Shown piece by piece: positions 56,141-59,786 of a stretch of DNA of 64,000 bases. The stretch is from sequence record NC_041906.1. One strand, written 5' to 3'. The notes under the pieces are model-generated. The model was not told the DNA's origin. It saw only the letters and a list, made by a program, of their open reading frames with translations, and made no database searches. The translations under genes and the position numbers were made by a program. The DNA comes from Escherichia phage EC1-UPM. Positions within the stretch are counted from its first letter, which is position 1, and every line of letters starts with the position of its first letter.

Positions 56141-58411
56141 TTATAGGTTCATACCAAGAGCCGATGCTGGGTCTTGGCTAGGGTCATAATACTGGGAACT
56201 GAGTGAATAAGTCGGATCTTGCTGTGCAGCTAAGTCACGTTCCTGTAAAGAGTTCCCGTTAGTCAAAGCGTTATATCCGACAGCAGCAGATATGTTGGGG
56301 GTAGTTTCACCTTCTTTAGTAGGTGTTGTCAACGCCTTAGTTATTTGAAGGTTCTGGTTTCCTTGAGATTGTGCTTTTTGTTTTTCCATATCACGAGCAT
56401 GTTTAGTACCAGATTCCTGTTCCAGATAATCAAGGTCTTTAAGGTCACCGCTAGAAGCAGCTTCTTTAGCTTTAGCATTATTAAGTGCAATCTTACTTTG
56501 CAGCTCTTCGTTCTCAAGCTGTGCTTTCTGAATTGCTAATTGCTTAAGCTGTTCCTCCATAGGGTCTGGTTGTGGTTTCCAGGTACGTAATTCATGAGCA
56601 AGGTCTGGCATACGTTTAAGTTCTGCAATCTTAGCTACAAGGGATAATGTAATAGTCTGGTCAACTGTATTACCTAATGTTTGAACCATGAAGCTCAGGT
56701 CTTGAGATTTCTGGTTATCAATCTCAGCAGTATTAATATCAACTTCAATGTCGAAGTTACCTTTAAGGTCTTCACGGTTAATTTCTACATACTGTTCATT
56801 AGTAATACGTACTACTTCCTTCTCAGATAAGAACACAGCATTCATTGCACAAATCTTAGTACCAATGTCTGCCATACCCTTAGCTAATCGACGAAGAATT
56901 GCCATTTCACGTTTAGATGCTGCATCAAGTGCACCACGAATACCAGCAGCTACATCTCCATAGGCTGCACCAGTTACACCACCAGAGAATGCTTTAACAC
57001 CTGTTAGTGCTTCTGCTTCCTGGTTCTGCATCTGAGTCATTACTATTGCCGACTGAGGTAACTCTGGGAACTTATGCTCCATAATAGACTGACTAGGGTT
57101 ACCCTGCATTGGGTTATATTCATAGTCTTGCCCATCGTCATACCGACGTCGGTTAAGAGTATCTAACATCCCTTTAGGATAACCACGTTGCCCGTTTGCA
57201 CTTCGACCTAATAGGTCAATCATCCCACGCATGGTTGCACCAAGAATTGCTTGGTTATCCCCTAACAGTTCAGCATCAGCTTCACCATAGAGTTCACGTT
57301 TACGGGGCATATATGGAACAACTACCAAAGGTAATTTACCATCCGGGAATGGGTTCTTCTCCATACGAATAAGAGTAGAACCAATCCAGGTAGCAACAAT
57401 AGGTTCAAGTGAACCATCATCATTGATGTCATAGAATCCCCAGTATTCATAAGCAATGACTTTCTTACGAAGTGCATCCTTAAACTGGAAATCACCAGGA
57501 GTTTTACTTTCATGGTCCGGGTCAGTCATAGGACTAGAACTTTCCCAGTCAATCTTATCCAGGTTGTGATAACGGTCTTTGTTTTTCATGAGGTCTGCTT
57601 TGCACGTCTCAAAGGAGATAACTGCATAAAGAGCCTTATCCAAATCACCATTACAGCTTGGGTCAATAACTACGTTATTAGGGTTAAGCATTTCAACAGT
57701 AGGTCTGTTAACCAGTGCTTTCTCTACCTCTACCTCAGTAACACCAGTCTGGATTGCATACGTAGCTTCCCCAGTTTCATTGAAGTAGTTAACAGCTTCC
57801 TTAATATCTTCCGGCATTGTTTCATCATACTCACGGGGATTTTCTGCCTGAAGCTGTAGAGCCTGCTGAAGAATATCTGCTTGTTCTTGGTTCTCAATTG
57901 GATACAACTGGAAGACTGGTGTTTCTGTTTTAATCTTAACAGTCTTACGTTCCCAACCAATACGAGCAATACCAGTGCCATCATCTACGACACTGTGTAC
58001 GTAATCATCTACCAGTTTTACTTTATTAAGCTGAGTACGGAATTGGTAGTTAAGAACTAGTTCATTCTGACGTGCAGCTAACTCATCTTCAAAAGTAACA
58101 GGGGTTACCTTAAAGAGTTTATTAGATGAAAGGAATGGTTCGGACAATGGTGCATAACGCCACTCTGCCTGACGGCGAACCAGTCTAGGTTGGACTTGTG
58201 AGCGTCCTTTAACCTTTGGGGGTTTAGCCTTGCCCTTAACTTCCATCAAGTCATTCCACTCACGAATCTGAGCCATGATTGCATCGTGAGCAGGTTTAGC
58301 TGATTCCAAATCACCTTTCAGTAATTGGATACTTGGTTCCTTCTTCCAGTCCGTTAACTTCTCTGATTGAGCCGGGTCTGGTAAAGGCTTAAAAGTGTCT
58401 TGGTGTTCCAT
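56141..58411 (-). CDS. portal protein (N4 gp59-like)
   Basis: 756 aa; upstream of scaffold/MCP genes in transcription order; size matches N4 portal. Confidence 0.65.
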
Positions 58412-58413
58412 AG

Positions 58414-58920
58414 TTATTCCTGTTCAAAAAGTTTACGGTCAGCCTGAATCTGTTTACCCAACTCAATTAGTTGGCTGTCACGGAGTCTAACAGTTGCTCT
58501 GAGTTCTTCAACCAAACGTCTGCCTTCTTCAAGATTGTTGTCGAGTCTGGATGCATGGCTTGCAAGACTTCTGCACTCAAAGGTTCCGGCTTCGGCTTGA
58601 CGTTTATATACCGATGCTCGTCTTTCAGACTGTTGCATCCGGCTGTCGTAATCACTGCTAACGCGAGCAAGCTCGCTTGCGTAATTACTCTCAGCCGTCT
58701 GCAACCGGGAAGTGAGTAACCCAACTTCATAACTATGGTTTCTTTGGAGAGCATTGTATTTGTCCTGTAATTTTTGCGTTGCCTTTTGGTCTTCAACCTT
58801 TTGGGCATCCCACTTCTTTTGAACAGTAGACTGCCCATTGGAATTACCCCAAAAGTAAATGGTGGCCCCTAGGACCACCACCAGAAGATAAGGCCAACCT
58901 TTAGAGATTAGCATCTTCAT
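58414..58920 (-). CDS. i-spanin (Rz-like)
   Basis: N-terminal [18 protein letters not shown] then coiled-coil-rich periplasmic domain; directly after endolysin gene. Confidence 0.55.
58467..58730 (-). CDS. o-spanin (Rz1-like lipoprotein) embedded in +1 frame of i-spanin gene
   Basis: [32 protein letters not shown] signal peptide with lipobox-like TAGC, then Pro-rich PKPEP; wholly inside Rz ORF. Confidence 0.45.
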   Translation of the reverse strand: MKLGYSLPGCRRLRVITQASLLALAVITTAGCNSLKDEHRYINVKPKPEPLSAEVLQAMHPDSTTILKKADVWLKNSEQLLDSVTAN

Positions 58921-59536
58921 TACATGCCTCCAGTGGCACATTGCCTATTCGGTTAGCTACCCAACCATACGTAAAGTCTGGCATGTTTAATGAGGTGTAG
59001 TGGTTCAGTTGTTTGGCATCAAGTAACTTAATCATTACCTGACATGCTGCAACTTTGCCTCGTTTTTTCTGTAATGCTTTATATGCATTAACAGTACTTG
59101 TACCGACTTTACCATCAACCTGTATTTTAGGGTAGTCTTTGCCATCACGGGACATTTCGTTAAGAGATAACTGCAACCACTTAGCAGGACGGGTTACACC
59201 AGTGTTAACACCAGCATCAACCAGTTTGTGTGTTACAGCAGGAGATATATCAGCGAAAGCTACGAAGTTAGGCTTAAGTACGTAATCATCAATGTATATC
59301 TCAGCAGCCATCTCTTTAGATAAACCTTTCATAGAACCATCCCAACCATATTCAGTAGCCAGAACTTCTTTATGAGTCTTAGCTACAGATTGGGTAATAC
59401 CATGATTGGTTTCCCCACCTGGGTCACGAGGATTGTTTACATATCCTCCTTCCATATAGAACACTGCCCCCAGAATAGCAGCGATAACTCCTCCCACTGC
59501 ACCACCTTTCGCAGCAAGTTTCTGTTTAGCTTTCAT
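58901..59536 (-). CDS. endolysin, GH108 N-acetylmuramidase with C-terminal peptidoglycan-binding domain (N4 gp61-like)
   Basis: EGGYVNNPRDPGGETNHGIT is the GH108 signature. Confidence 0.75.
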   Translation of the reverse strand: MKAKQKLAAKGGAVGGVIAAILGAVFYMEGGYVNNPRDPGGETNHGITQSVAKTHKEVLATEYGWDGSMKGLSKEMAAEIYIDDYVLKPNFVAFADISPAVTHKLVDAGVNTGVTRPAKWLQLSLNEMSRDGKDYPKIQVDGKVGTSTVNAYKALQKKRGKVAACQVMIKLLDAKQLNHYTSLNMPDFTYGWVANRIGNVPLEACNEDANL

Positions 59537-59786
59537 GTGAATTTTCCTTTGGACGGAATCGTATCAATCTACCAACGATGTTTAAGGCAAACAATGCGAT
59601 TGCAATATTGGAACCATGGGGAATATCTTCCAGGATGTGACGGGGTAATCCTGTCAGCATTGGTTGAATGATATCTATGGCAGAAAACATAATTAGCCCA
59701 AGTGTACTAATCTGAATGGATGCCCATTTCCAGCATCTTTTCCAATTAGGTACTAACTCTACCTTTCTTTTTAGCCTGCGAACCAT
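59526..59786 (-). CDS. holin candidate (two TM helices)
   Basis: TM1 ASIQISTLGLIMFSAIDII, TM2 IAIALFALNIVGRLI; overlaps endolysin start; start codon uncertain (59852 or 59786). Confidence 0.4.
   Translation of the reverse strand: MVRRLKRKVELVPNWKRCWKWASIQISTLGLIMFSAIDIIQPMLTGLPRHILEDIPHGSNIAIALFALNIVGRLIRFRPKENSHES

Follow-up and report, generated by a model that had tools for sequence, protein, structure and literature searches.

The window, by which we mean the whole stretch of 64,000 nucleotides of Escherichia phage EC1-UPM (NC_041906.1), matches known Gamaleyavirus (G7C-like) phages at about 96% identity. The spanin features found in it are all situated on its minus strand (Table 1), and N4 and G7C show the same succession of genes: portal, Rz/Rz1, GH108 endolysin, gp62, gp63.

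Table 1. Predicted features of the spanin locus and of the adjoining lysis genes, in window coordinates.
Feature	Coordinates	Strand	Basis
i-spanin gene, Rz-like, N4 gp60 homologue	58414..58920	-	168 aa; PHROG 6197, GGAGG 6 nt before ATG 58920, hydropathy, AF2
o-spanin gene, Rz1-like, N4 gp60a / G7C gp60' / St11Ph5 gp60.1 homologue	58467..58754	-	sequence, start/Shine-Dalgarno survey, annotated equivalents in St11Ph5, Mimir124, G7C, AlfredRasser
o-spanin signal peptide	58638..58754	-	basic n-region, hydrophobic core, lipobox T-A-G directly before Cys
mature o-spanin, 56 aa	58470..58637	-	Cys codon 58635-58637, stop codon 58467-58469; 73% identity to mature N4 gp60a, 33-phage consensus
endolysin, N4 gp61 homologue	58901..59536	-	Pfam PF05838 (Glyco_hydro_108) E 7e-20, PF09374 (PG_binding_3) E 1.5e-7
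N4 gp62 homologue, 86 aa, two hydrophobic segments	59526..59786	-	PHROG 1356, Pfam DUF7940; 65% identity to N4 gp62
N4 gp63 homologue, 109 aa	59771..60100	-	PHROG 5211 E 9e-50; 68% identity to N4 gp63

The longest form of the Rz-like ORF spans 58414-58941(-) and codes for 175 aa. Its match to PHROG 6197 (Rz-like spanin; E 7.6e-77) covered residues 8-173 of this ORF and positions 1-166 of the 167 in the profile; matches to other Rz-like families were weak (E from 3e-5 to 2e-3). The ATG at 58941 was rejected as the gene start because it lies upstream of the GGAGG Shine-Dalgarno sequence that serves ATG 58920. The latter is the most likely start, and its equivalent is the start given for the Rz of ECBP1 in SpaninDB (2018 table) and likewise for that of St11Ph5. 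With this start, the first 20 nt of the i-spanin gene overlap the 3' end of the endolysin gene. A tblastn comparison with N4 gp60 gave an E-value of 3e-37; the identity to this protein is 56%. Neither spanin protein matched a Pfam family at E <= 0.01 or an NCBIfam model.

Hydropathy of the i-spanin places an N-terminal membrane anchor at about residues 9-25, inside a hydrophobic segment within residues 3-27 (the KD17 windows exceeding 1.4 begin at residues 3-11). The AF2 model (mean pLDDT 77) has two helices, 9-110 and 116-167, separated at 111-115 by a short AGTFE break, after which Cys116 opens the second helix. A single N-terminal transmembrane segment and a mostly helical periplasmic domain point to a type II inner-membrane topology; for the G7C i-spanin, the tables of the 2018 spanin census give 93.6% helix in the periplasmic domain. 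In the same census, a periplasmic Cys for a homotypic disulfide was present in 507 of 528 systems. At our locus such a residue is supplied by Cys116, the single periplasmic Cys of the i-spanin, and the mature o-spanin has no Cys usable for a disulfide. Seven relatives within the same spanin family have no periplasmic Cys.

The o-spanin ORF, 58467-58754, lies wholly within 58414-58920 in a different frame, +1 relative to Rz, beginning on the second base of an Rz codon. Its precursor would have 95 aa if translated from ATG 58754 and 87 aa from ATG 58730. The hydrophobic core of the signal peptide reaches a KD17 maximum of 1.72 and leads to the motif ITTAGC, with predicted cleavage between TTAG and C, so that the mature part opens with CNSL. 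The motif and the residues before it conform to the PROSITE-type lipoprotein pattern {DERK}(6)-[LIVMFWSTAG](2)-[LIVMFYSTAGCQ]-[AGS]-C, which accepts the Thr at -3; this Thr is outside the lipobox consensus [LVI][ASTVI][GAS]C (PMC6139136). Position +2 is occupied by Asn and not by Asp. Together with the signal peptide and the lipobox Cys, this gives the product the features of a small lipoprotein, as judged by the PROSITE-type pattern. The mature part is co-encoded with Rz residues about 95-151. The census tables describe the C-terminal half of the o-spanin as partly helical; AF2 without an alignment gave a weak hint of a C-terminal helix (residues 71-94) in a precursor model that is unusable because its mean pLDDT is 42.

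Downstream of the gp63 and gp62 genes, the endolysin is an N-acetylmuramidase of the GH108 type that also has a PG_binding_3 domain; its N-terminus is Gly/Ala-rich and SAR-type, and the protein is 70% identical to N4 gp61. A 2025 preprint (PMC12642591) presents N4 gp61 as a demonstrated SAR endolysin, gp63 as the N4 pinholin, and gp62, called "holin" in databases, as a non-essential lysis regulator. In the gp63 homologue, the N-terminal part is helical and the membrane segment is C-terminal.

Much of this layout had been proposed in the initial annotation. Its Rz-like ORF with an N-terminal transmembrane segment and a coiled-coil periplasmic domain agrees with the PHROG 6197 match, the hydropathy and the AF2 helices, and its ORF with a lipoprotein signal and ITTAGC inside Rz in the +1 frame is borne out by the position of the ORF and the pattern match. 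The lysis cassette was also correctly recognized: the spanin genes are linked to the endolysin (Pfam) and, upstream of it, to the holin candidates, of which the gp63 homologue would be the true holin and the gp62 homologue a regulator, as in N4. Concerning the coordinates, the embedding and the end at 58467 stand; the strand is minus, and the starts move from 58941 to 58920 for Rz and from 58730 to 58754 for Rz1. The description of the mature region as "Pro-rich" was overstated, with 4 Pro in 56 residues, clustered in KPKPEP.

Translation start of the embedded gene

The o-spanin start is probably ATG 58754. This codon is preceded by AGGA with an 8-nt spacer and is present in 13 out of 13 Gamaleyavirus-like sequences. 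The majority of the distant relatives have a Shine-Dalgarno sequence such as AGGAG, GGAG or GAGG, with a spacer of 7-9 nt, before the embedded start; the nearest ordinary start found in distant relatives, 15-24 codons before the Cys, is missing from Gamaleyavirus. The signal peptide also differs from that of N4, in which a further ATG, lacking in Gamaleyavirus, precedes the Cys by 15 codons.

The PROSITE lipoprotein rule expects the Cys within residues 15-35. The signal peptide read from ATG 58754 has 39 aa, which puts the Cys beyond residue 35. Translation from ATG 58730 instead of ATG 58754 would produce an 87-aa precursor with a canonical signal peptide of 31 aa, a Lys at residue 2 and the Cys at residue 32, inside that range. 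SpaninDB lists 87 aa for G7C and PhAPEC5/7, and the o-spanin of AlfredRasser (N4) is annotated from the equivalent ATG. Conversely, no Shine-Dalgarno match was found before ATG 58730, and its equivalent is missing in ECBP1 (where the codon is ACG), in locus L033 and in Klebsiella phage VLCpiP4b, all three of which keep the ATG at -39. The 95-aa form is the one used for ECBP1/KBNP21 in SpaninDB and for gp60.1 of St11Ph5. We therefore consider initiation at 58730 possible but rather doubtful. Both ATGs yield the same mature protein, and its function is thus independent of the choice of start.

A use of both in-frame starts in Gamaleyavirus, 58754 (39-aa signal) along with 58730 (31-aa signal), appears improbable. 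If it were true, the rate of lipoprotein export, and with it the supply of spanin at lysis, might be adjusted by the long basic n-region or by the proportion of the two precursors, and the dual start would be an analogue of lambda S107/S105 acting on the spanin.

The longest embedded ORF (123 aa), annotated as gp60' in G7C, begins at ATG 58838. We rejected this codon as a conserved start: farther upstream the +1 frame is interrupted in PhAPEC5, L028, L031, L032 and L033, with an open run of 99-105 codons, and before the Rz1 start the divergence by codon position resembles that of ordinary single-frame coding.

Selection on two overlapping frames

The comparison set consisted of 33 non-identical Schitoviridae relatives from about ten host genera, their hosts being Escherichia, Shigella, Klebsiella, Pseudomonas, Achromobacter, Burkholderia, Erwinia, Stenotrophomonas, Xanthomonas, Alcaligenes and Delftia. 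Searches by tblastn with either frame reached 157 phage records. A scan of IMG/VR with the Rz protein gave 9 loci, at least one of which (L027) was identical to a GenBank phage already in the set.

We observed that the +1 frame was open in all 33 relatives, at Rz identities down to 26%. In every one of them a hydrophobic stretch is followed by [GA]C and by a conserved mature domain of 54-63 aa, in which the +2 residue is N, S, G, A or E and never D. The divergence at third positions of Rz codons was 0.256 inside the overlap with mature Rz1 compared to 0.589 outside (MWU p = 2.6e-14), and third positions changed 0.95 times as much as the average of the first two inside compared to 1.40 times outside, so that the customary surplus of third-position change disappears in the overlap. 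Both frames are under purifying selection across Schitoviridae, and the double constraint peaks at the overlap of the mature o-spanin with the distal helix of the i-spanin. The initial annotation had named two observations that would speak against it, an embedded frame not conserved in related phages and synonymous sites of Rz free of constraint; the frame turned out to be conserved in 33 of 33 and the synonymous sites to be constrained over the mature Rz1.

The single-sequence evidence is modest, with p about 0.02-0.03. When the codons of Rz were permuted synonymously, the +1 frame stayed open for 133 codons or more in 3.3% of the trials, and a lipoprotein-like +1 ORF arose in 1.7%; the mean length of the +1 frame was 79 codons, and it reached at least 87 codons in 28%. 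Such statistics are too weak alone because a fixed Rz protein fixes two thirds of the +1 frame. They leave room for a reading in which the +1 ORF results from the Rz amino acid sequence without being expressed, with Rz acting alone or with an unlinked partner, and this reading would also agree with the lack of PHROG, Pfam and NCBIfam matches for the embedded protein. The relatives make it very unlikely. All 33 phages, down to the low Rz identities given above, retain the open frame, the lipobox Cys and the mature sequence, and in several distant phages the embedded protein is better conserved than the Rz segment co-encoded with it (80% versus 68% identity in inbricus, 59% versus 50% in RG-2014). 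Furthermore, it is only over the mature o-spanin that third positions of Rz codons are no longer free to vary, and the majority of the distant relatives have the Shine-Dalgarno sequences described above before the embedded start. Finally, an N4 fragment carrying gp60 and gp60a complements a lambda RzamRz1am (double amber) lysogen, i.e., supplies both spanin functions (PMC12642591). The evidence from the relatives is decisive against a chance open frame.

A constraint at the level of nucleic acid (an RNA structure or a regulatory site) in place of a second protein would fit the lowered divergence at all three codon positions of 58470-58637, which any overlapping constraint could produce, and the "terminator" annotated in or near the Rz-like gene in the PhAPEC7 and SP5M records, but we give it next to no credence since the constraint depends on the frame (within the overlap, Rz position 1, where the +1 frame has its wobble base, is the least constrained), only +1 is free of stops (the +2 frame is open for just 18-64 codons), and the lipobox Cys after the hydrophobic run is invariant though the signal-peptide sequence diverges freely.

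An antisense ORF on the plus strand, 58471-58719 (82 aa, TTG start), was attributed to chance; its frame is open for only 52 codons in N4, 44 in Ea9-2 and 42 in QDWS595.

Relation to known spanins and proposed role in lysis

With the embedded ORF read as a gene, 58414-58920 almost certainly encodes a two-component spanin of embedded architecture, belonging to a Gamaleyavirus, an N4-like podophage of the G7C type. No substantive observation speaks against this reading. The embedded two-gene spanin of N4-like phages, including the Gamaleyavirus gene, is already catalogued. In G7C, gp60' is annotated as "embedded within ORF60", and gp60.1 of St11Ph5 and gp60a of N4 are the same embedded gene. The o-spanin is also annotated in Mimir124, AlfredRasser, Piffle, Philippe and Ebordelon, and SpaninDB (the 2018 spanin census) lists N4, G7C, ECBP1, PhAPEC5/7 and JWAlpha as "emb".

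N4 shares with the window the +1 embedding, the gene order and a mature o-spanin of 56 aa; the i-spanins of the two are 56% identical and the mature o-spanins 73%. For G7C and St11Ph5, the respective identities are 97-98% and 93%. In N4/G7C-type spanins, as in the window, the single periplasmic Cys is at the junction of helix 1 and helix 2 of the i-spanin. The window allele is distinguished by His for the conserved Gln in AMQPDST and by Glu for Gly in NSGQLL.

Lambda Rz/Rz1 has the same architecture, the whole o-spanin gene being nested in the +1 frame of the i-spanin gene, and the same topology, a type II inner-membrane protein with two helical domains paired with a small outer-membrane lipoprotein. 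The functions are interchangeable, as shown for the N4 pair in lambda (PMC12642591). There is, on the other hand, no detectable sequence similarity, and the window pair did not match the Pfam families of the lambda proteins. These families are Phage_lysis PF03245 for Rz and PF06085 for Rz1. The entry pfam03245 is quoted for Rz in PMC5418858. Lambda Rz1 has 41 periplasmic residues (2018 census tables) compared to the 56 aa of the mature o-spanin in the window, and its penta-proline stretch (PMC6139136) is absent from the window protein, where KPKPEP contains no run of prolines. Lambda Rz1 has Cys29 and lambda Rz has two Cys, whereas the only Cys of the window o-spanin is the one predicted to be lipidated. 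The C-terminal half of the window o-spanin is partly helical (census tables and, weakly, AF2), unlike lambda Rz1.

The T4 pair PseT.3/PseT.2 and T1 gp11 perform the same last step of lysis, the disruption of the outer membrane, and are unrelated in sequence to the window pair. The T4 o-spanin, too, has a helical C-terminal segment and lacks a proline-rich region (PMC6139136). The T4 genes are separate, not embedded. T1 gp11 is unimolecular, a single lipoprotein with a C-terminal membrane anchor.

By analogy with lambda Rz/Rz1 and the N4 orthologues, we infer a role in outer-membrane disruption for the window pair, and the steps of the mechanism follow the same models. Sec would export the o-spanin precursor, signal peptidase II would cleave it after lipidation of the Cys, and Lol would carry the lipoprotein to the outer membrane, a destination expected because the +2 residue is Asn, not Asp. 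The mature o-spanin, especially its C-terminal half (QAMQPDST..LKKAD.WLKNS.QLLDSV), would bind the C-terminal helix of the i-spanin, and the complex would traverse the periplasm through the peptidoglycan mesh. After the gp63-like pinholin depolarises the membrane, the GH108 SAR endolysin would degrade the murein, and the freed spanin complexes may then collapse and fuse the inner and outer membranes as the last step of lysis.

The locus is a clean textbook case of dual-frame purifying selection, of little significance beyond correct annotation. Many GenBank records of N4-like phages name only the Rz-like gene over this stretch, and in most N4-like genomes the embedded o-spanin still escapes automatic gene calling and PHROG-based annotation. 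A profile made from the 33-sequence alignment could mend the missing o-spanin annotation.

Dual coding in the lysis region

The whole gene set of the lysis region was found on the minus strand. A GGAGG Shine-Dalgarno sequence is positioned, on base-by-base reading, 6 nt 5' of the Rz ATG at 58920 (MKMLISKG...). The ATG at 58941 was rejected as the Rz start, since it lies upstream of this sequence; the Rz gene therefore most likely begins at 58920, and in this form overlaps the 3' end of the endolysin gene by 20 nt. Kongari et al. (2018), in their supplementary tables, list an identical Rz start with an identical Shine-Dalgarno sequence.

Features of the lysis region and their coordinates
Feature	Coordinates	Strand	Remarks
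N4 gp63 homologue, 109 aa	59771-60100	-	first in 5'-to-3' order
N4 gp62 homologue, 86 aa	59526-59786	-	longest ORF, with GTG start, 108 aa
Endolysin, 211 aa	58901-59536	-	Pfam Glyco_hydro_108 and PG_binding_3 matches
Rz-like ORF, 175 aa	58414-58941	-	PHROG 6197 'Rz-like spanin', E 7.6e-77
Rz gene from ATG 58920, 168 aa	58414-58920	-	most likely extent
Portal gene	56141-58411	-	match to SU10/N4 portal family
Antisense ORF, 82 aa	58471-58719	+	TTG start; rejected as a gene

The +1 frame of Rz (whose codons begin at base 2 of the Rz codons) has 133 open codons and a stop at 58467-58469. The initial annotation had placed an ORF with a lipobox-like ITTAGC in this frame at 58467-58730; frame and coordinates proved correct base by base, and the lipobox is present in a sequence that fits the PROSITE-type lipoprotein pattern. 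Of 20,000 trials in which the Rz protein was held constant and synonymous codons were permuted, 3.3% gave a +1 frame open for at least 133 codons and 1.7% a lipoprotein-like ORF. By itself, the window sequence gives modest evidence against chance; the decisive evidence that the frame is more than a chance one comes from its relatives. The antisense ORF opposite the dual-coded region was considered a chance ORF, because its frame is closed in N4, Ea9-2 and QDWS595.

Conservation of the embedded frame

The window DNA was ~96% identical to Gamaleyavirus phages (vB_EcoP-ZQ2, St11Ph5, pSb-1, ECBP1, Bp4 and others). In tblastn searches, the Rz protein and the embedded protein both detected 157 phage records, and the counts per organism and per host did not differ between them. 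No database phage had an identical embedded protein (best match 95.4%). For comparison we used 24 GenBank loci picked to span the family, 9 IMG/VR loci and the window; removal of one exact duplicate left 33 non-identical Rz genes, with hosts from about ten genera.

Frame conservation and constraint at synonymous sites of Rz, whose absence the initial annotation had named as able to refute its claim, were both observed, in support of the claim. The +1 frame was open for 77-146 codons in 33 out of 33 genes, compared to just 18-64 codons for the +2 frame. All 33 also had [GA]-Cys at the end of a hydrophobic run and a mature o-spanin of 54-63 residues, with a consensus that begins C.s.k.e..yiNVkPk. 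and ends ..Lkkad.WlknSgqLLDSVt.n; Asp at o-spanin residue +2 was found in none of them. In the codon alignment, the mean pairwise divergence at Rz position 3 was 0.256 in the overlap with mature Rz1 (56 codons), compared to 0.589 outside it (Mann-Whitney p = 2.6e-14). Divided by the mean for positions 1 and 2, the position-3 value was 0.95 inside and 1.40 outside. The normal third-position excess was absent within the overlap, where Rz position 1, at which the +1 frame has its wobble base, varied most. The effect was weak over the signal-peptide codons, as expected, since this segment is constrained mainly in composition.

Start codon and protein features

The ATG at 58754, 39 codons 5' of the Cys, is preceded by AGGA at a spacing of 8 nt. 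All 13 Gamaleyavirus-like sequences, and Klebsiella phage VLCpiP4b too, have an ATG here with AGGA or AAGG in front of it. The ATG at 58730 (31 codons 5' of the Cys), the start in the initial annotation, does exist, but no Shine-Dalgarno match was found before it; the equivalent codon is ACG in ECBP1, and the ATG is also missing in VLCpiP4b and in the relative's locus L033. A third candidate, ATG 58838, chosen by the G7C annotators for gp60' (123 aa), was rejected, as a +1-frame stop cuts it off in five close relatives. In published tables the o-spanin has 95 aa in ECBP1/KBNP21 and 87 aa in G7C/PhAPEC5/7. We favour 58754, perhaps with 58730 used as well; both yield one and the same mature protein. 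The long signal peptide and the start choice in the genus are the only residual curiosity of the window.

The i-spanin has a hydrophobic N-terminus. Its AlphaFold2 model, made without an alignment (mean pLDDT 77), has helices at 9-110 and 116-167 and a break at 111-115 (AGTFE); Cys116, at the break, is the sole periplasmic Cys. The mature o-spanin (56 aa) has no Cys besides the lipidated one. It was initially described as Pro-rich, an overstatement given its four Pro (7%), three within KPKPEP. Its model, of low confidence (pLDDT 42), contains only a suggestion of a C-terminal helix; in the 2018 census, the secondary-structure tables likewise count 21 of 56 residues of the G7C o-spanin as helical. 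The DNA for mature Rz1 also encodes Rz residues ~95-151, which comprise the last part of helix 1, the linker and the greater part of helix 2; in this region both proteins are at their most conserved.

In mature Rz1, the window codon at 58553-58555 (-) specifies His; the residue is Gln (AMQPDST) in at least 90% of the 33 relatives. This His is unique to the window among the 33 (ZC08 has Leu), and the same nucleotide change turns an Rz Ala into Ser. The codon at 58505-58507 (-) specifies Glu in the window and Gly (NSGQLL) in most relatives; this substitution is silent in Rz.

Lysis cassette and variation in the family

The gp62 homologue, with two hydrophobic segments, matches PHROG 1356 'holin' and DUF7940 and is labelled 'holin' by databases and PHROG, while the helical gp63 homologue, with a C-terminal membrane segment, is called hypothetical or 'antiholin'. 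These labels are probably swapped, since in N4 gp63 (68% identical to its window homologue) is the pinholin and gp62 (65% identical) is a non-essential lysis regulator (PMC12642591). The N4 gp63 'Receiver' residues T65/T71 fall in a conserved PTIEEFITIKHK motif, identical in the window. In the N-terminal ~30 codons of the GH108 endolysin, a basic stretch precedes a Gly/Ala-rich, weakly hydrophobic segment, GGAVGGVIAAILGAVF, which is the signature of a predicted SAR (signal-anchor-release) domain. PMC12642591 also reports an experimentally shown SAR domain for N4 gp61, the SAR endolysin, and complementation of a lambda RzamRz1am lysogen by N4 gp60 with embedded gp60a. Identity to N4 was 56% for gp60, 73% for mature gp60a and 70% for gp61.

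The analysis established dual coding, the lipoprotein features of the embedded product, its conservation and its setting in a lysis cassette; together with the N4 orthologues, these support the two-gene spanin interpretation. The embedded spanin is confirmed as a feature already known: Kongari et al. (2018) listed N4, G7C, ECBP1, PhAPEC5/7, EC1-UPM and JWAlpha as 'emb', and GenBank annotates the embedded gene in G7C (gp60', 'embedded within ORF60'), St11Ph5 (gp60.1), Mimir124, AlfredRasser, Piffle, Philippe and Ebordelon. Lambda Rz/Rz1 has the same mode of action and architecture; however, no sequence relationship to it is detectable for the window pair, which has no Pfam matches, lacks the penta-proline stretch and differs in its Cys pattern.

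From the Rz/Rz1 paradigm (PMC6139136 and PMC12642591) and the experiments on N4 orthologues, we infer that the o-spanin would be exported and lipidated, and would bind the membrane-anchored i-spanin at its distal helix, bridging the periplasm. The gp63-type pinholin would release the SAR endolysin, leading to murein degradation, and with the murein gone the spanin complexes would fuse the two membranes.

As annotated, the gene directly upstream of the spanin pair codes not for an endolysin but for adenylosuccinate synthetase in Pseudomonas phage Arace01 and for an endonuclease in Alcaligenes phage QDWS595; therefore, the cassette is not contiguous throughout the family. In Burkholderia phage vB_BpP_HN01 (L013), where GenBank annotates the embedded ORF alone, Rz lacks a stop codon at the homologous site; its frame stays open for 255 codons and enters the portal gene (locus ~301-1053). 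Either an error of sequencing or assembly or a genuine C-terminal extension could account for this.

Seven family members (Axy12, JWAlpha, CRC2, Philippe, Ebordelon, Arace01 and QDWS595) have no periplasmic Cys in either spanin subunit. S6 and RG-2014 have lost the i-spanin Cys and have one at position 14 of the mature o-spanin instead. The 'at least one disulfide' rule for spanins has ~4% exceptions; the family spans both the rule and its exceptions, and thus makes a natural test set for the need of a covalent link.
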